Of a stretch of 9,709 bases of DNA, positions 1 through 8,281 are shown piece by piece. The stretch lies in IMG/VR virus record IMGVR_UViG_2671181064_000002; one strand, written 5' to 3'. Numbering within the stretch: position 1 is the first letter of the stretch; every line of letters starts with the position of its first letter. Both the position numbers and the translations under genes were made by a program. The stretch is from a virus. Its lineage: Duplodnaviria; Heunggongvirae; Uroviricota; Caudoviricetes. Below the pieces are notes generated by a model, which was not told the DNA's origin, ran no database searches, and was given only the letters and a program-made list of their open reading frames with translations.

Positions 1-184
1 TCGCCACGGGAATATCTACGGCAGCAAGCCAGTAATGGGTTAAGTGATAACAGGTGTCTGGAAATATAGGGGCAAATCCAGCGTTCATCAGCCCCCGCAT
101 TGCCGACAGGATCACAGACGGGGGGCGCAACTGGTTGTCGTTCAACTGGCCCAGCTACCGTTCTTGTATCAGAGGTGTGGCTGC

Positions 185-1576
185 ATGACAACACCAGTCT
201 GGCGTAATGATGACCTGGAAGGCGCTGTCATTGGCGCATTCTTTCTGCGTGGGGCAGATCATGAAGTGATGGATATTCTGATCACACTACCGGCGGACAT
301 TTTTTCTGTACGAGCGTATCGGGATATCTACACAGGCATCTGCAGACAGGCCCGTGTTTCAGGAGTGATTGACCCCGTGCTGTTGTGTAATGAGATGCCG
401 GAACTTGCCCCGGTGATTACTGATACCGGGCGTAAAACCTGGGTGAAGTCTTCACTGGAGCACTATGTTGCAGCGTTGCGGCGCAATGCCGCACTGCGCG
501 ATGCAGAAAAAACACTGAATGAGGCGCTGCAGAAATTACGTGATGCGCATACCTGTGAAGCAGCTGAAGATGCCCTGAAGGATGCGCAGAACATGATGGT
601 CACACTGTCGACAGGAAAGGGCGTCATTCAGCCGGTACATATTGATGATGTGCTTCCGGAAGTGGTTGAGCGTGTTGAATGCCGGAATCAGGGGCTGGAG
701 AAATCCAGGACGTTGATGACCGGTATTGATGAACTGGACGCAAAAACAGGCGGTATGGAGCCCGGAGACCTGGTATTCATTGCCGCCCGTCCTTCGATGG
801 GGAAAACCGAACTTGCGCTGGACATCATCGACAAGGTGACTGAGCAGGGGCATGGTGTGCTTCTGTTCACCATGGAGATGGCGAACATCCAGATTGGTGA
901 ACGTATGGTGTCTGCGGCTGGAGGGATGCCAGTATCACGCCTGAAATCTGTGGCTCACTTTGAAGATGAAGACTGGGCGCGTTTCTCACAAGGGGTGGGG
1001 CGGATGACCGGGCGCAATATCTGGATGGTGGACCAGGCGAACCTGACCATTGATGAGATATGCGCAACAACGAAACACCATCTGATTAAACATCCGGAAA
1101 CGGCGCTGGTGGTGGTTGATTATCTCGGGCTGATAAAAACCCGAACCACGGGGCGTCATGACCTTGCCGTGGGTGAAATCTCAAAGGGGCTTAAAGGCCT
1201 GGCAAAATCCGGTGGTTTTCCGTTGATTGCGCTGAGCCAGCTCTCCCGCGGTGTGGAGTCCAGACCCAATAAACGTCCCATGAACTCAGACCTGAAAAAT
1301 TCCGGAGAAATAGAGGCGGATGCAGACATCATTCTGATGCTTTACAGGGATGAAGTGTACAACCCGGATACACAGGCTACAGGCATAGCAGAAATTAATA
1401 TCACGAAACAACGTAACGGTTCTCTGGGGACGATTTACCGGCGTTTTTATAACGGACATTTTCTGCCTGTGGACCAGGAAAGCGCACAGGTTCTTTCCAC
1501 CCCAATGCGGCAGCCCCAGCCGCGCAGATACAGCAATACACGTACCGACAGCAGTAAGATGGAGCGTTTCTTTTGA
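185..1576 (+). CDS. Replicative DNA helicase, DnaB family
   Basis: Walker A ARPSMGKT and Walker B-like VVVDYLGL; DnaB C-terminal signature SQLSRGVESRPNKRPMNSDLKNSGEIEADADIILMLYRDEVYN. ATG at 185 preceded by GAGGTG (172-177) and gives 463 aa, typical DnaB length. The ORF is open in frame back to GTG 44, so the start is uncertain. Confidence 0.85.
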   Translation: MTTPVWRNDDLEGAVIGAFFLRGADHEVMDILITLPADIFSVRAYRDIYTGICRQARVSGVIDPVLLCNEMPELAPVITDTGRKTWVKSSLEHYVAALRRNAALRDAEKTLNEALQKLRDAHTCEAAEDALKDAQNMMVTLSTGKGVIQPVHIDDVLPEVVERVECRNQGLEKSRTLMTGIDELDAKTGGMEPGDLVFIAARPSMGKTELALDIIDKVTEQGHGVLLFTMEMANIQIGERMVSAAGGMPVSRLKSVAHFEDEDWARFSQGVGRMTGRNIWMVDQANLTIDEICATTKHHLIKHPETALVVVDYLGLIKTRTTGRHDLAVGEISKGLKGLAKSGGFPLIALSQLSRGVESRPNKRPMNSDLKNSGEIEADADIILMLYRDEVYNPDTQATGIAEINITKQRNGSLGTIYRRFYNGHFLPVDQESAQVLSTPMRQPQPRRYSNTRTDSSKMERFF

Positions 1577-1830
1577 ACAACCAGACAATGACTTTTACCT
1601 CTGAACAATTGCGTAAACACGCGCAGGAAATGTTGCGACAGGCGGAACAACTGGAAAAAACAGGTGTAACAAAAGATGCCATTCGTCGGGATATGGTGCC
1701 AGCGCTCAGGGAACTGATGCAGGCGAAACATCGCGCACAAAAAGCGGTGGATGAGCTCGTTGATTGTGTGGCAGAGCTGGAAACCAAAGTTGGAAAGTTT
1801 GAAAAAATGGTGCAGGAGGTGCTGCGCTGA
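1573..1830 (+). CDS. Hypothetical small protein (85 aa from TTG 1573; 80 aa if ATG 1588), predicted helical/coiled-coil
   Basis: ORF wedged between helicase and rusA with overlaps at both ends (helicase stop 1574-1576; TGA 1828-1830 overlaps rusA ATG 1830). GGAG at 1561-1564 precedes TTG 1573. Charged, heptad-like sequence; no motif I recognise. Confidence 0.5.
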   Translation: MNNQTMTFTSEQLRKHAQEMLRQAEQLEKTGVTKDAIRRDMVPALRELMQAKHRAQKAVDELVDCVAELETKVGKFEKMVQEVLR

Positions 1831-2201
1831 TGCGCCATGAGTTTATTTTACCTTATCCGCCGACGGTGAATACTTACTGGCGACGTCGTGGCAGCACATA
1901 TTTTGTATCAAAAGTTGGTGAGCGTTATCGCCGTGATGTGACGCTAATTGTTCGCCAGCAGCGGCTGAAATTAAACCTGTCCGGAAGGCTGGCGATAAAG
2001 ATTATTGCAGAGCCACCGGATAAGCGCCGTCGTGACCTGGACAATATCCTGAAAGCACCACTGGATGCGCTGACGCATGCCGGACTACTCATAGACGACG
2101 AGCAGTTTGATGAAATCAATATTGTGCGCGGTCAGCTCGTTCCTGGTGGGCGACTGGGCGTGAAGATTTATGAAATCACAGGTGATAACGATGGCGCGTG
2201 A
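1830..2201 (+). CDS. rusA: Crossover junction endodeoxyribonuclease RusA (Holliday junction resolvase)
   Basis: Motifs [45 protein letters not shown] and GGRL align with my recollection of E. coli RusA. AGGAGG at 1814-1819 precedes ATG 1830. Confidence 0.9.
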
Positions 2202-2577
2202 TATTCAGCAGGTTATGGAACGGTGGGGGGCTTGGGCTGCAAACACTCATGAAGATGTATCCTGGGCGTCGATCGCTGCTGGTTTTAAAGGGTTAATTCC
2301 GTCGAAAGTGAAATCACGCCCTCAGTGTTCTGATGATGATGCAATGATAATTTGTGGCTGTATGGCCCGGTTGAACAAGAAAAATCAGGATTTGCACGAT
2401 TTGCTGGTGGATTATTACGTAGGTGGAATGACTTTTATGAGTCTGGCACGGAAACATGGGTGTTCGGATACCTGTATTGGCAAGCGCCTGCAGAAAGCGG
2501 AAGGGGTTATTGATGGCATGTTGATGATGCTTGATATCCGGCTGGAGATGGACAGATACGTAGAACGAATTATGTAG
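2191..2577 (+). CDS. Late-gene antitermination protein Q (Phage_antitermQ / QuuD-like family)
   Basis: [23 protein letters not shown]...[24 protein letters not shown]...[24 protein letters not shown] matches my recollection of DLP12 QuuD-type Q proteins. ATG 2191 preceded by AGGTGA; overlaps rusA stop (2199-2201). An in-frame ATG at 2170 is the alternative start. Confidence 0.85.
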
Positions 2578-2581
2578 GTGC

Positions 2582-2611
2582 TTGACCAGACACATTGTCC
2601 GGGGCTATATT
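2582..2611 (+). promoter_or_regulatory. Candidate late promoter pR' (TTGACC - 18 nt - TATATT), 5 nt after the Q stop
   Basis: -35 TTGACC 2582-2587 and -10 TATATT 2606-2611. Position immediately downstream of Q matches lambdoid late-promoter architecture. A perfect 6-bp hairpin CGCCAG-CAAAAT-CTGGCG at 2619-2636 lies in the predicted initial transcript. Confidence 0.5.
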
Positions 2612-2670
2612 CCTCACGCGCCAGCAAAATCTGGCGTCGGGATTGGAACCCCGGATAGAGACCGCGACAG

Positions 2671-2697
2671 ACACACGCCGCGAGCGTGTTTTTTATT
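2671..2697 (+). terminator. Candidate tR' intrinsic terminator (short pR' transcript of about 75-80 nt)
   Basis: Stem ACACGC (2673-2678) / GCGTGT (2684-2689), loop CGCGA, followed by TTTTTTATT. Confidence 0.55.
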
Positions 2698-2822
2698 GTC
2701 GTATGCACGCGCACATCTGAATTATGGTGGGGCGCATGGGGGAGCTGAAAAGCTCGCCGGTCGGTTTCCCGGTAGTTCCAACCCTGTGCGTCTCACCACC
2801 CGATGATTGGAACCTGACGGTG

Positions 2823-2851
2823 TTGACAGTTTCAGGTTTGCAGTTTACATT
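2823..2851 (+). promoter_or_regulatory. Candidate sigma70 promoter (TTGACA - 17 nt - TACATT) upstream of the ORF6N gene
   Basis: -35 TTGACA 2823-2828 and -10 TACATT 2846-2851. It sits about 200 nt upstream of the chosen start codon and is sequence-only, so it is weakly supported. Confidence 0.3.
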
Positions 2852-3057
2852 TCCCCGCGGTGCTCAAAACACCTCGAAAGCGGTATCCACACCCGATAGC
2901 CATGTGGTTTTTTTGTGTCCAGAATTCTTGGTTTATGACCGGGTGTGCGGCTAATACAATACCAGCAATGGAAATACGCCCGCCGACTTTCGACGGTTTT
3001 GAGCGCCCGGTCACCCTCTCAAAAGGGGTAAATCAAAATATTCGAAAGGACATGTCT

Positions 3058-3621
3058 ATGAATCGCACGTCTATTGAAAAACTCCCGTCACTTACGCATA
3101 ACCATCTTCCTGTCATGACAACAGAGCTGCTGGCTGATTTGTACGGAACAGAGCGCCAGCGTTTGACAAACAATTTCAATCGAAACAAAGAACGGTTTAT
3201 AGAAGGTAAACATTTTTTCCTGATAGAAGGTGATGCGTTACGAGAGTTGAAGAACGAAAACTCTTTAAGAGTTTCTGTGAAAATTGCCCGTAACGTTCGC
3301 TCCCTCATCCTCTGGACAGAACGTGGCGCAGCCCGTCACGCCAAAATGCTCGAAACCGATCAGGCGTGGGAAGTGTTCGAAAAACTGGAAGACTGTTATT
3401 TCAACCAGAAACAGCCACCAGCGGCACAAAACACATCTATCGAAAATGATGGATGCGCATTACTGAGCCACTTCGATAAACACGGTCAGGTTGAGTTCAC
3501 GGAAAAGGTACCCGCCGATGCGATGGTATGTACTCTGGAACGGTTTAAATTTTATCTGGAGCAACACGGGTGGATCGTTGCCCGTAAAGAGCAACTGGTG
3601 GAGCGGTTGATGCGGTTTTAA
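3058..3621 (+). CDS. ORF6N-domain (KilA-N/antirepressor-like) protein with an uncharacterised C-terminal region; cargo gene
   Basis: N-terminal motifs LPVMTTELLADLYGTERQRLTNNFNRNKERFIEGKHFFL and SLILWTERGAARHAKML resemble the ORF6N domain. ATG 3058 lies 7 nt after AAAGGA (3045-3050); ATG 3052 is too close to that SD. The ORF is open in frame back to GTG 2860, but that extension has no domain support. Confidence 0.75.
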   Translation: MNRTSIEKLPSLTHNHLPVMTTELLADLYGTERQRLTNNFNRNKERFIEGKHFFLIEGDALRELKNENSLRVSVKIARNVRSLILWTERGAARHAKMLETDQAWEVFEKLEDCYFNQKQPPAAQNTSIENDGCALLSHFDKHGQVEFTEKVPADAMVCTLERFKFYLEQHGWIVARKEQLVERLMRF

Positions 3622-3696
3622 AAATTTTTTCCGAAAACTTTACGATCGTAAAAAGTTGAATATCCTGTTAAGAGTGGTTACTACGCCACACAGCTT

Positions 3697-3722
3697 AAAC
3701 CCGCCGATGAGCGGGTTTTTTT
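3697..3722 (+). terminator. Intrinsic terminator downstream of the ORF6N gene
   Basis: Stem AAACCCGC (3697-3704) / GCGGGTTT (3711-3718), loop CGATGA, T-run 3716-3722. Confidence 0.7.
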
Positions 3723-3772
3723 ATACCTGAAAAACGGCACAGGACGTTAAACGTGCTGGTGGTCAGATGAGT

Positions 3773-3801
3773 TTGCAGATGTGATGACATATGGTTATTA
3801 T
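3773..3801 (+). promoter_or_regulatory. Candidate sigma70 promoter for the tRNA array (TTGCAG - 17 nt - TATTAT)
   Basis: -35 TTGCAG 3773-3778 and -10 TATTAT 3796-3801; the first tRNA begins at 3811. Confidence 0.4.
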
Positions 3802-3810
3802 TCTGCCTCC

Positions 3811-3887
3811 GGCCCTTTAGCTCAGTTGGTCAGAGCGAGCGACTCATAATCGCCAGGTCGCTGGTTCAAGTCCAGCAAGGGCCACCA
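3811..3887 (+). tRNA. tRNA, anticodon CAU; probably tRNA-Ile2 (lysidine, reads AUA), tRNA-Met not excluded
   Basis: Cloverleaf folded by hand: acceptor GGCCCTT/AAGGGCC, D-stem GCTC/GAGC, anticodon loop CTCATAA, T-arm GCTGG-TTCAAGT-CCAGC, encoded CCA. Closely resembles my recollection of E. coli tRNA-Ile2. Confidence 0.85.
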
Positions 3888-3888
3888 A

Positions 3889-3965
3889 CCACCACTAGCT
3901 CATCCGGATAGAGCATCAACCTTCTAAGTTGACGGTGCGAGGTTCGAGTCCTCGGTGGTGGGCCA
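3889..3965 (+). tRNA. tRNA-Arg (anticodon UCU, reads AGA)
   Basis: Acceptor CCACCAC/GTGGTGG (unusual C1-G72 pair), D-stem GCTC/GAGC, anticodon stem TCAAC/GTTGA with loop CTTCTAA, T-arm CGAGG-TTCGAGT-CCTCG, encoded CCA. Confidence 0.8.
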
Positions 3966-3967
3966 GC

Positions 3968-4043
<76 letters not shown>

Positions 4044-4046
4044 TAT

Positions 4047-4121
<75 letters not shown>

Positions 4122-4262: not shown

Positions 4263-4482
4263 NNNNNNNNNNNNNNNNNNNNNNNNNNNNNNNNNNNNNN
4301 NNNNNNNNNNNNNNNNNNNNNNNNNNNNNNNNNNNNNNNNNNNNNNNNNNNNNNNNNNNNNNNNNNNNNNNNNNNNNNNNNNNNNNNNNNNNNNNNNNNN
4401 NNNNNNNNNNNNNNNNNNNNNNNNNNNNNNNNNNNNNNNNNNNNNNNNNNNNNNNNNNNNNNNNNNNNNNNNNNNNNNNNNN
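4263..4482. other. Assembly gap (220 N)
   Basis: Uninterrupted run of n. True length and content are unknown. Every six-frame ORF crossing it is an artefact. Confidence 1.
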
Positions 4483-5584: not shown

Positions 5585-5935
5585 ATGCCATCACTAATCC
5601 CACGTGCCTGCCGTAAGCGTGGATGTGCAGGTACAACCACAGACAGTTCGGGTTACTGCGATAAACATCGCGGTGAAGGCTGGGTGCAGCACCAGCGCGG
5701 ACTGAGCCGCCACCAGCGTGGCTATGGCTCAAAATGGACGGTGATTCGTGCCCGTATTCTGAAGCGCGATAAAGGTCTGTGTCAGTTGTGTCTGCGTGTC
5801 GGTGTGGTGAGCGAGGCGAAAACCGTCGACCACATCATCCCGAAAGCGCATGGCGGAACAGACGCAGACAGCAACCTGCAGAGTCTGTGCTGGCCCTGCC
5901 ATAAAGCGAAAACAGCGCGCGAACGAATCCGGTGA
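5585..5935 (+). CDS. HNH endonuclease (packaging-associated, HK97 gp74-like)
   Basis: HNH motif CQLC...DHIIPKAHGGTDADSNLQSLCWPCHKAKT. GAGG at 5576-5579 precedes ATG 5585. Sits directly upstream of the terminase genes. Confidence 0.9.
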   Translation: MPSLIPRACRKRGCAGTTTDSSGYCDKHRGEGWVQHQRGLSRHQRGYGSKWTVIRARILKRDKGLCQLCLRVGVVSEAKTVDHIIPKAHGGTDADSNLQSLCWPCHKAKTARERIR

Positions 5936-5957
5936 TAATTATTCTCACTTGTAGGGA

Positions 5958-6017
5958 GGGGCGGGGCAAATCCCTGTGACCTGACGTCTTCCGGACTGCC
6001 CGCCCCATCGTTTTTTT
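5958..6017 (+). other. GC-rich imperfect hairpin followed by a T7 run; candidate terminator and/or cos-associated element
   Basis: Arms GGGGCGGGGCA (5958-5968) and TGCCCGCCCC (5997-6006) pair over 10 bp with a one-nt bulge and a 28-nt loop; TTTTTTT at 6011-6017. Located in the HNH-to-TerS intergenic region. Confidence 0.4.
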
Positions 6018-6056
6018 ATACCCGCGAAAAATGAAATTTAACCAGGAGTGCCGCAT

Positions 6057-6551
6057 ATGGCTGGAACGGCGGGGCGTTCCGGGCGTCGCCCCAAGCCAAC
6101 GGCGCGCAAGGCGCTGGCCGGAAACCCCGGCAAGCGAGCCCTGAACAAAGATGAACCTGTTTTTACGCCCATCAAAGGTGTTGAGCCACCAGAGTGGTTC
6201 GCTGAAGAAGATCTCCCTCTCGCCACGATCATGTGGCAACTGACAACCAAAGAACTCTGCGGTCAGGGCCTGCTGTGCGTGACTGACCTGGCGGTACTTG
6301 AGCGGTGGTGCGTGGCCTATGAGTTCTGGCGACGTGCCGTGAAAAATATTGCCATACAGGGCAACACCATCACCGGTGCAATGGGCGGCAGGGTCAAAAA
6401 TCCGGAGCTGACCGCCAAAAAAGAACAGGAGTCCGAGATGAGCAGCACGGGGGCAATGCTCGGACTCGACCCCAGCAGCCGCCAGCGTCTGATTGGCCTG
6501 GCGGGGCAGAAGAAAGCCACTAACCCGTTTCTGAAAATTATCGAATCATGA
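6057..6551 (+). CDS. terS: Terminase small subunit, P27 family
   Basis: N-terminal [29 protein letters not shown] is characteristic of the P27 family. AGGAG (6044-6048) lies 8 nt before ATG 6057. Stop overlaps the terL start (ATGA). Confidence 0.85.
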
Positions 6552-8281
6552 GCCGGAAATCTTACCCCAACGTAAATGCTGCAAATCAGTATGCCCGGGA
6601 TGTCGTGCGCGGAAAGATTGTTGCCTGCCAGTTTGTGATTCAGGCCTGCCAGCGCCATCTTGATGACCTGATGGCGGAAAAAAGTAAGTCGTTTCGTTAC
6701 CGCTTCGACAAGGACCTGGCTGAACGGGCCGCGAAATTTATTCAGCTGTTGCCGCACACCAAGGGGGAGTGGGCATTCAAACGGATGCCCATCACGCTGG
6801 AGCCGTGGCAGCTATTTGTGATCTGCTGTGCGTTTGGCTGGGTCAATAAAGGCACCCGGTTGCGCCGCTTCCGGGAGGTGTACACCGAAATCCCCCGTAA
6901 GAACGGCAAATCAGCAATCTCTGCCGGTGTTGCCCTGTATTGTTTTGCCTGTGATAACGAGTTTGGCGCGGAAGTGTATTCCGGTGCCACGACAGAGAAA
7001 CAGGCGTGGGAAGTCTTTCGCCCGGCGCGACTGATGTGTAAACGCACACCCATGCTGACGGAAGCGTTCGGGATTGAGGTTAACGCCTCAAACATGAACC
7101 GTCCGGAGGATGGCGCGCGGTTTGAACCGCTGATCGGCAACCCAGGTGATGGTTCATCACCCCACTGTGCCGTGGTTGATGAATATCACGAGCATGCCAC
7201 CGATGCGCTTTATACCACAATGCTTACCGGGATGGGGGCGCGACGTCAGCCACTGATGTGGGCCATCACCACCGCCGGGTACAACATTGAGGGGCCGTGC
7301 TACGACAAGCGGCGGGAAGTCATCGAGATGCTCAACGGCTCGGTGCCTAACGATGAACTGTTCGGGATCATCTATACCGTTGATGAAGGTGACGACTGGA
7401 CCGGCCCGCAGGTGCTGGAAAAAGCCAATCCAAATATTGGCGTGTCGGTTTATCGCGAATTTTTGTTAAGTCAGCAGCAGCGTGCGAAAAATAACGCCCG
7501 TCTGGCAAACGTCTTTAAAACAAAACACCTCAATATCTGGGTGTCGGCGCGTTCGGCGTATTTCAACTTGGTGAGCTGGCAGAGCTGCGAGGATAAATCA
7601 CTGACCCTTGAGCAGTTCGAGGGGCAGCCGTGCATTCTGGCCTTTGACCTGGCGCGTAAGCTGGATATGAACAGCATGGCGCGACTTTATACCCGCGAGA
7701 TTGACGGTAAAACGCATTACTACAGTGTGGCCCCGCGTTTCTGGGTACCGTATGACACGGTGTACAGCGTCGAGAAAAATGAAGATCGACGGACAGCCGA
7801 ACGCTTTCAGAAATGGGTGGAAATGGGCGTTCTGACCGTTACCGATGGTGCGGAGGTGGATTATCGCTACATCCTCGAGGAGGCCAAAGCGGCGAACAAA
7901 ATCAGCCCGGTCAGTGAGTCACCCATCGACCCCTTCGGGGCGACCGGGTTGTCACATGACCTTGCTGATGAAGACCTGAATCCCGTCACTATCGTCCAGA
8001 ACTTCACCAATATGTCCGATCCGATGAAAGAGCTGGAAGCAGCGATTGAATCGGGACGTTTTCATCATGACGGCAATCCCATCATGACCTGGTGTATCGG
8101 CAACGTGGTCGGCAAAAACATGCCGGGTAACGATGATGTGGTGAAACCCGTCAAAGAGCAGGCGGAAAACAAAATCGATGGTGCAGTTGCGCTGATTATG
8201 GCGGTTGGCAGAGCCATGCTGTACGAGAAAGAAGACACGCTGTCTGACCACATTGAGTCCTACGGGATCCGCTCGCTTTAA
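6548..8281 (+). CDS. terL: Terminase large subunit (ATPase/nuclease, HK97-like Terminase_1 type)
   Basis: 577-aa ORF with Walker A-like PRKNGKS and Walker B-like AVVDEYHE; translationally coupled to terS. Confidence 0.95.

Follow-up and report, generated by a model that had tools for sequence, protein, structure and literature searches.

Antirepressors decide when a prophage awakens, can act in trans on neighbouring prophages, and are relevant to the induction of Shiga-toxin (Stx) and Salmonella prophages. In the immI region of phages P1 and P7 (c4-icd-ant; Citron and Schuster 1990), as annotated for P1 (NC_005856), a promoter is followed by the sites a1 and b1, the processed antisense RNA C4, the sites a2 and b2, and icd-ant; the a sites pair with the linker of C4, the b sites pair with the loop of its second hairpin, and b2 overlaps the Shine-Dalgarno (SD) sequence of icd. 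Here we analyze a 9,709-nt stretch of viral DNA (IMG/VR record IMGVR_UViG_2671181064_000002; the whole stretch is hereafter called the window), which is the right half of a lambdoid prophage, and within it the gene of an ORF6N-domain protein located between the antiterminator gene Q and an array of four tRNA genes. Judged from family matches, the leader of this gene encodes a C4 RNA, an sRNA-Xcc1-type RNA and two terminated leader RNAs, and we argue that these RNAs would gate the translation of an antirepressor.

Two further systems are close to this locus. In prophage Gifsy-1 of Salmonella Typhimurium, the operon isrK-orf45-anrP-isrJ follows the Q-like gene antQ (Hershko-Shalev et al. 2016, PMC4825925). 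Expression of anrP increased antQ and SL2581 mRNA and induced Gifsy-1, and translation of anrP rose about 140-fold when the short IsrK RNA was provided in trans (PMC4825925). In the published model, the orf45/STnc1160 region is not presented as a C4 RNA. The second is sRNA-Xcc1 (RF02221) from integron cassettes of Xanthomonas campestris, which lies directly 5′ of, and co-oriented with, the toxin gene symE, its mechanism being called divergent (bioRxiv 10.1101/2025.06.18.660453); a study of APSE phages noted sRNA-Xcc1 upstream of an ORF6N gene (PMC7313666). A 2025 review handles IsrK and c4 separately, and our literature searches found neither an sRNA-Xcc1-type RNA presented as a C4-like gatekeeper of the SD of an adjacent gene nor a tandem arrangement of C4 and Xcc1.

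Results

Two tandem RNA units in the leader of the ORF6N gene

An Rfam scan of the window returned four non-tRNA matches above gathering threshold, all on the + strand between 2605 and 3020, in the 480 nt that separate Q from the ORF6N gene (Table 1). The same four families occur in Escherichia coli loci, and isrK and C4 in Gifsy-1. The locus is built of two tandem units of one design, in which a promoter leads into a leader with a terminator and then into a structured RNA. In the first unit, promoter 1, with a −10 region (CCGGGGCTATATT) that is invariant in four aligned loci, corresponds in position to lambdoid pR′ and to the promoter of isrK in Gifsy-1. Its IsrK-type leader carries a1 and b1 sites that covary across loci with the linker and loop of the C4 RNA, and the minimum-free-energy fold of that RNA (−44.9 kcal/mol) has the shape of the family. 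The second unit is a module of about 214 nt (promoter 2, leader 2 and the Xcc1-type RNA) inserted between C4 and the gene; it replaces the b2/SD site of C4, with the joint falling between ...CTGACGGTG and TTGACAG. In a counterpart locus, EC12, the loop of the Xcc1-type RNA is CUACUGA and b1 and b2 both read UCAGUAG. Taken in the window alone, the duplexes with the leader sites exceed shuffled controls (p about 0.01-0.02).

These results bear on what an earlier note on the window, made from the letters without database searches, had said of the region upstream of the gene. Its candidate promoter in front of the gene (promoter 2) gains support from conservation beyond its score alone, as 30 of 34 distinct modules have such a promoter (see below). 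The pR′/tR′ stretch of what it had called a Q/pR′/tR′ module does have a promoter in the pR′ position, and otherwise consists of a leader RNA of the IsrK/c4-a1b1 kind and, behind it, the gene of a C4 RNA. Both small antisense RNA genes of the leader (Rfam C4 and sRNA-Xcc1) had been overlooked.

Several minor features of the leader deserve mention. Hairpin 1 of all Xcc1-type RNAs has a near-invariant internal loop, AAUACAAYACC...GGGRAAUA, which is dispensable for the pairing of a′ and b′. An open reading frame (ORF) of 76 aa (2724-2954) starts at an AUG within the 5′ end of the C4 RNA, which is the position of Gifsy-1 'orf45'. Its equivalents across loci range from 31 to 76 aa and are not conserved in sequence; conservation at 'orf45' is one of nucleotides and not of protein, because the RNA lies there. 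We rejected translational coupling of the orf45 type at the window locus, since the ORF is unconserved and ends 100 nt upstream of the gene. A LexA-box-like sequence, CTGACGGTGTTGACAG at 2814-2829, overlaps the −35 element of promoter 2. Control by LexA (SOS), as for the antirepressors GfoA and GftA of Gifsy prophages, Tum of 186 and AntC of N15, was rejected as well: this sole candidate box has one mismatch and a GC-rich spacer, is not conserved in EC12, and the count of such boxes in the window is not above chance.

Table 1. Coordinates of the leader elements, the ORF6N gene and its neighbours in the window
Feature	Position	Strand	Details
Promoter 1	2582-2611	+	TTGACC-18-TATATT; 5 nt past Q stop
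c4-a1b1 motif	2605-2657	+	Rfam, 50.1 bits (gathering 46.7)
IsrK-family RNA	2618-2694	+	Rfam, 77.5 bits (gathering 50); overlapped by c4-a1b1 motif
Leader 1 a1	2641-2649	+	GAUUGGAAC
Leader 1 b1	2658-2664	+	GAGACCG; complement of C4 loop with one G·U pair
Leader 1 terminator	2673-2694	+	
C4-type antisense RNA gene	2720-2803	+	Rfam C4, 71 bits (gathering 45)
C4 RNA b′ (loop)	2762-2768	+	CGGUUUC
C4 RNA a′ (linker)	2775-2782	+	GUUCCAAC
a2 site for C4 linker	2805-2813	+	GAUUGGAAC
Promoter 2, sigma-70	2823-2851	+	TTGACA-17-TACATT; score 10/12
Leader RNA 2	2859-2914	+	hairpin, b1 and terminator
Leader 2 hairpin	2859-2873	+	GGUG-CUCAAAA-CACC; stem with compensatory changes relative to EC12
Leader 2 a1	2862-2869	+	GCUCAAAA; in hairpin loop
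Leader 2 b1	2874-2880	+	UCGAAAG
Leader 2 terminator hairpin	2887-2907	+	CCACA...UGUGG, then U7 (2908-2914)
sRNA-Xcc1-type RNA gene	2937-3020	+	C4-like architecture; Rfam, 77.4 bits (gathering 53)
Xcc1-type RNA b′ (hairpin-2 loop)	2987-2993	+	CUUUCGA
Xcc1-type RNA a′ (linker)	2997-3004	+	UUUUGAGC
a2 site	3018-3024	+	CUCAAAA; complementary to Xcc1-type linker
b2 site	3042-3048	+	UCGAAAG; runs into SD AAGGA (3046-3050) of the ORF6N gene
ORF6N gene, coding sequence	3058-3621	+	187 aa; between Q and four-tRNA array
Intrinsic terminator closing the cassette	3697-3722	+	8-bp GC-rich stem and T-run
DnaB-type helicase gene	44-1576		
RusA gene	1830-2201		
Q antiterminator gene	2170-2577		Pfam PF06530
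tRNA-Met(CAT), -Arg(TCT), -Thr(TGT), -Gly(TCC) array	3811-4121		
Masked run of N	4263-4482		220 nt; separates tRNA array from lysis genes
Lysozyme, Rz, HNH, P27-type small terminase, large terminase and portal genes	from 4584 on		

Covariation of loops and targets across loci

To test the loop/target match beyond the window and EC12, 160 loci encoding relatives of the protein were fetched (80 viral and 80 from diverse genomes), and covariance models were built from them, R1 for the Xcc1-type RNA and R2 for C4. The consensus fold of the Xcc1-type RNA has compensatory changes in 10 of its 21 pairs (10 sequences). Model R1 found 52 copies, all on the + strand, and for every one of the 51 copies beyond the window the distance from the end of the RNA to the mapped start, downstream, of the match to the ORF6N protein is about 35-85 nt; R2 recovers the annotated c4 gene of P1 at 47.5 bits. 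An RNA of the C4 and/or Xcc1 type stands just 5′ of the ORF6N gene in all 76 viral loci with upstream sequence, and one of either type does so in about 52 of the 80 loci from diverse genomes. The rest of the module is shared too: a sigma-70 match of at least 9/12, with a −10 element that ends 82-117 nt 5′ of the RNA, is present in 30 of 34 distinct Xcc1-type modules, and a T-run at 25-54 nt 5′ of the RNA in 32.

In these alignments, the loops of the RNAs and their target sequences covary from locus to locus. For 24 distinct Xcc1-type loops, the exact complement found downstream has a mean length of 7.2 nt for cognate pairs versus 4.5 nt for non-cognate ones. It ends 5-13 nt before the start codon, usually running into the SD, in the 22 loci, of 25, in which both SD and start could be assigned, and the same complementary sequence is also present in the upstream leader. 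The 15 distinct C4 loops of Gifsy-1-type loci follow the same pattern; in Gifsy-1 itself, the C4 loop CGGUGA pairs with UCACCG, which abuts the SD (GGAGG) of anrP. When loops were permuted against loci, none of 20,000 permutations reached the observed sums, for the b2 as well as the b1 sites and for both RNA types. Further loop variants from Stx phages fit the loop/SD pattern. One locus, in Entomohabitans teleogrylli (L009, 2637-3921), holds two tandem units of an Xcc1-type RNA and an ORF6N gene, the first ORF being 125 aa long and apparently truncated.

The ORF6N protein and its relatives

The real start of the gene is the ATG at 3058, since it lies 7 nt after AAGGA and is aligned with the starts of all close homologs; the program-made ORF begins earlier, at 2860. 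A search of 5.8 billion proteins yielded 4,661 relatives, the closest cluster (99% identity) being named from Shigella sonnei. Pfam ORF6N (PF10543) matches residues 13-97 above gathering threshold (E 8.8e-21, 74.4 bits against 27.8), and positions 3-187 of the 187-position PHROG 2379 'anti-repressor' profile match residues 2-187 of 187 (E 4.4e-85). The best full-length match with annotated context in the phage collection is STM2616 of Gifsy-1 (49.5% identity over 97% of the query), which is located between Q (STM2617) and a tRNA-Arg gene, i.e. in the same Q-gene-tRNA slot. Judged by its position between Q and isrJ and by its antirepressor-like product, STM2616 matches anrP (SL2578) of the published operon (PMC4825925). 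The window gene is thus, by homology and position, a member of the AnrP family in the AnrP slot, and by homology its product would antagonize a prophage repressor. We also considered STM2616 as a LexA-controlled Gifsy antirepressor and rejected this, because GfoA and GftA are different small proteins encoded next to dinI; the window protein is unrelated to them.

The likeness to Gifsy-1 extends over the whole locus, in the order Q, promoter, IsrK leader with terminator, C4-type RNA, ORF6N protein, terminator and tRNA, with IsrK/a1b1 and C4 elements homologous to those of the window. The identity to AnrP is full length and includes conserved GW-V and L-E-L positions in the C-terminal module. 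Unlike Gifsy-1, the window has the extra module of about 214 nt, so that the SD-proximal target belongs to the Xcc1-type RNA and not to C4; it has no conserved, translationally couplable orf45; and no Rfam match to isrJ was found in the 3′ untranslated region of the gene, where only the terminator aligns.

The protein consists of the ORF6N domain with a conserved helix (residues 1-117), a linker and a small C-terminal module with a ββαα arrangement (131-187). An AlphaFold2 model built with 52 homologs gives the N-terminal domain a pLDDT of 78-89, a disordered linker at 114-130 and a small C-terminal module. When the module was predicted alone from 36 sequences, its core reached a pLDDT of 87-94 and formed a β-hairpin followed by two helices. 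The C-terminal half has no family match in Pfam or NCBIfam, and a Foldseek search of the module against the PDB gave no fold match (best E 0.65, TM at most 0.27). A word-indexed search with this half gave mostly gene fragments, and an exhaustive search of residues 127-187 against 1.84 billion representatives found just 11 clusters. Relatives of the module of the AnrP type were found at 36-38% identity. Alignments indicate that the N- and C-terminal modules recombine independently about an invariant junction, SLILWTERGAARHAKMLETDQAWEVFEKLEDCYFSQK, and that the C-terminal module occurs behind Rha or Ash+AntA domains besides ORF6N. In sequence comparisons it does travel, but it stays with N-terminal domains of the antirepressor type, and it may serve in target recognition or oligomerization.

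AntB of Stx phages (2851, Nil2) shares the N-terminal 117 aa at 54% identity and its gene, too, follows an Xcc1-type RNA, with a loop that matches the SD region of antB. In contrast to the window protein, which has an unrelated ββαα module of 60 aa, AntB carries P22_AR_C, the C-terminal domain of the P22 antirepressor, after the junction, and its gene is located in the nin region and not after Q. The C-terminal module as a diverged P22_AR_C was rejected because the homology to AntB ends at residue 117 in both BLASTP and hhalign; Pfam likewise found neither P22_AR_N nor P22_AR_C in the window protein.

Several statements of the earlier note concerned the protein. The ORF6N domain that it had recognized by eye is confirmed by PF10543. 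Its view that the C-terminal part matches nothing recognizable still holds for Pfam families and solved structures, yet this half is shared by relatives, AnrP included. The gene is not the uncharacterized orphan for which it had been taken, having thousands of full-length relatives, a named PHROG family and a genetically studied homolog in Gifsy-1 AnrP. Among the roles it had offered (antirepressor, regulator, or exclusion/anti-defence factor), PHROG 2379 and AnrP favor the first and the last is disfavored. Full-length homology to a characterized antirepressor with a known C-terminal domain, which it had named as a finding that would refute its reading, exists in part: AnrP is a characterized protein of the antirepressor type, although its C-terminal domain is itself not characterized. 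The gene appears to be a phage regulatory switch and not a new class of biology or cargo of an unrecognized kind.

The slot between Q and the lysis genes

Other lambdoid phages pass from Q to the lysis genes without this gene, or hold stx or nmpC in the slot. The gene was confirmed to occupy this slot, between Q and the tRNA array, as had been proposed, and its own intrinsic terminator was confirmed by conservation in E. coli and Gifsy-1 relatives. Promoter and terminator flank the gene, as in the anatomy of a moron. At least 59 of the 80 viral loci and at least 12 of the 80 genome loci have a Q-like gene as the immediate 5′ neighbour. In eight of the Q-adjacent loci the Xcc1-type module comes immediately after Q, and its promoter, leader and terminator thus fill the place of pR′-tR′.

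Phage 2851 has an Xcc1-type RNA in front of antB, which lies in its nin region, and a C4 RNA in front of antA; the fetched locus (L166) has the RNAs at 38-121 and 2379-2462, so that each of the two antirepressor genes has its own type of antisense RNA. In P13374, the Stx phage of O104:H4, an ORF6N 'anti-repressor' of the early-left operon stands behind an Xcc1-type RNA. With antB in the nin region and the P13374 copy in the early-left operon, the Q-to-lysis slot is common but not obligatory: the survey of homologs called for by the earlier note finds the C-terminal module travelling with ORF6N, and also with Rha and Ash+AntA, and the gene not always in a late-region slot. In P13374 (NC_018846; locus L165), an annotated small coding sequence, 'antB2 anti-repressor' (2344-2490), overlaps the Xcc1-type RNA (2379-2462) that precedes the actual ORF6N gene, and has probably been called in error; this RNA has the loop CUACUUG, with CAAGUAG as the site in the leader and CAAGUAGGA as the ribosome-binding-site region.

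The neighbouring genes of the window are those of a lambdoid prophage (Table 1). The four tRNA genes are spaced by 1-3 nt, a promoter-like site, TTTGCA-18-TATTAT (3772-3801), is found just 5′ of them, and the arrangement recalls the Stx-phage slot ileZ-argN-argO. Identical contigs show a 98-aa ORF in the masked run, and a class II holin gene starts shortly beyond its end. The HNH endonuclease, P27-family small terminase and large terminase genes (5585-8281) form an ordinary HK97-like packaging set. Within the assembly collection, 3,937 indexed blocks contain the exact ORF6N protein. Contigs that encode the identical protein carry a decayed prophage, with an integrase, a DUF5508 protein, and insertion sequences (IS1, IS3-family, IS4) flanking or interrupting it, and the portal gene is truncated in some copies.

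Discussion

We propose, with a probability of roughly two in three, that the cassette is an immI-type antirepressor module heading the late operon of a lambdoid prophage that is by now defective, and that its AnrP-family protein is under RNA gating. From the parallels with P1 c4 and IsrK we infer the pairing in vivo, the processing of the RNAs and the decoy role of the leaders, and from homology the activity and target of the antirepressor. Transcripts from promoters 1 and 2 would mostly end at the leader terminators. Those that read through would carry the C4-type and sRNA-Xcc1-type RNAs, which, judging from P1 c4 and from the experiments on IsrK, would be released from the transcript. The loop of the Xcc1-type RNA (b′) would pair with b2, overlapping the SD, and its linker (a′) with a2, 25 nt upstream, and the two pairings together would shut off translation in the manner of P1 C4 at icd-ant. 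The terminated leader RNAs, short and abundant, with their a1 and b1 sites, would titrate the antisense RNA and so switch translation on, as IsrK does for anrP; titration of C4 by a1 and b1 of the leader would also explain how IsrK activates anrP in trans. A Q-modified polymerase would pass all three terminators, so that the tRNA and lysis genes would be reached and the gene, also part of the late transcript, would enter a feed-forward loop at the onset of late transcription. By analogy with Gifsy-1 AnrP, the protein would derepress the early/Q operons of its own phage, or those of co-resident prophages in trans.

The system is one that, as proposed, works like P1 immI, is homologous to Gifsy-1 isrK-anrP, and falls outside the Ant families of P1 and P22. 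It shares with immI the a1-b1-RNA-a2-b2(SD) geometry, an antirepressor as the output and a C4-family RNA gene between promoter and antirepressor gene, the window C4 being homologous to P1 c4. The Xcc1-type RNA of the window has all four targets, and the C4 RNA is a partial match, with a1, b1 and a2 only. Unlike immI, the window has no icd and no conserved ORF between RNA and gene, its SD-proximal RNA is an sRNA-Xcc1, which in Rfam is outside the C4 clan, two RNA systems stand in tandem, and the locus lies behind Q within the late operon of a lambdoid prophage. The proteins are unrelated as well, P1 Ant1 having ANT/KilAC PF03374 only and the window protein PF10543 only. With sRNA-Xcc1 of Xanthomonas the window RNA shares the family, as judged by covariance model, but the window copy belongs to a prophage and has a C4 RNA as its tandem partner.

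A number of points weigh against this proposal. In Xanthomonas, sRNA-Xcc1 is reportedly a trans-acting sRNA, controlled by HrpG/HrpX, with unknown targets. In the window itself, the 7-nt b2 and the a2 duplexes are no better than shuffled controls, so that the claim of pairing at the SD rests on covariation across loci, and the loci that covary share ancestry. The C4 RNA of the window keeps a1, b1 and a2, but the SD-proximal b2 of Gifsy-1-type loci is gone. Neither the window nor its chromosomal context shows an immunity region, the prophage is split by IS elements, and the cognate target is possibly absent; no cI/cro-type genes were found within 10 kb upstream in the contigs with the identical protein. 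In the present host, the protein would have to act in trans, as reported for Gifsy and Fels antirepressors (PMC3121763), or the gene may be vestigial. The published model of anrP invokes coupling to orf45, which is not conserved here, and the same paper speaks of 'activated transcription activity' (PMC4825925). Neither AnrP nor any ORF6N protein of its family is known to bind a repressor.

An unlikely alternative, though the least unlikely of those we weighed, is that the ORF6N protein is a DNA-binding transcription factor that activates early/Q-operon promoters or relieves their repression, with the RNA gating unchanged. Against this, the same N-terminal module also occurs joined to the C-terminal domain of the P22 antirepressor, the archetype of its kind, the regulation of the cassette is laid out as in P1 ant, and the structural matches are weak. 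We consider it quite improbable that the gene is a true moron, i.e. cargo that benefits the lysogen through superinfection exclusion or through defence or anti-defence, has its own promoter and is independent of phage development; the earlier note had called the cassette cargo (moron). The anatomy does fit: the gene has its own promoter and terminator in a slot used for stx and nmpC elsewhere, and its GC content (46.3%) is somewhat below that of the window (52.3%), the earlier note having judged it by eye more AT-rich than the flanking phage genes. The adjacent Q gene, however, has 46.6% GC, which makes the compositional argument for cargo weak. PADLOC gives weak matches to the candidate defence family PDC-S05 (E 1.4e-7), but these run through the shared ORF6N domain only; gene and RNAs are intact in a defective prophage of thousands of assemblies, but this may reflect a clonal host. 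The module is also found in the nin region, in the early-left operon of an Stx phage and at non-Q sites, it is coupled, in all 76 viral loci with upstream sequence and in about 52 of the 80 genomic ones, to immunity-type antisense RNAs, which are proposed to keep the gene untranslated, and the homolog that has been studied induces its prophage instead of protecting the host. The likely role is that of an immunity-type regulatory module gated by antisense RNAs of the C4 type.

Still less probable, in our estimate, is that the cassette is a functionless relic in this genome, a gene that seems intact while its prophage decays and no target is left. The interruptions by IS1, IS3-family and IS4 elements, the missing cI/cro-type genes, the truncated portal of some copies and the C4 RNA without its b2 site would all agree with decay, but the ORF, both promoters, the three terminators, both RNAs and all pairing sites of the second module are intact. 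Moreover, the antirepressors of Gifsy and Fels prophages work in trans on other prophages (PMC3121763), so that a target need not be local.

We are evenly divided over a wider generalization of the proposed antirepressor module. Alongside C4, RNAs of the sRNA-Xcc1 type may form a second, widespread class of 'immunity' RNA with C4-like design, carried in a dangerous gene's leader, released from the transcript and masking the SD of that gene through a hypervariable loop, with terminated leader decoys as the switch; they would gate ORF6N antirepressors in many phages of Proteobacteria and SymE toxins in Xanthomonas integrons, the IsrK/orf45 mechanism would be reread as titration of C4, and the window would carry two heterologous locks in tandem on a single antirepressor where the late operon begins. 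If hypervariable C4-type RNAs gate ORF6N antirepressor genes in general, many genes annotated as 'ORF6N domain-containing' or 'hypothetical', and small ORFs mis-called over RNAs, would receive a regulatory explanation, and sRNA-Xcc1, now an orphan 'virulence-associated' sRNA, would gain a concrete and testable target. The loop/SD pairs would then be a natural specificity code readable from sequence, a kind of RNA-level heteroimmunity like that of P1 and P7. For the locus at hand, the kind of protein is already known, and it is the RNA layer that adds concrete, testable content. The logic of SD masking might also hold at the sRNA-Xcc1/symE cassettes of Xanthomonas.

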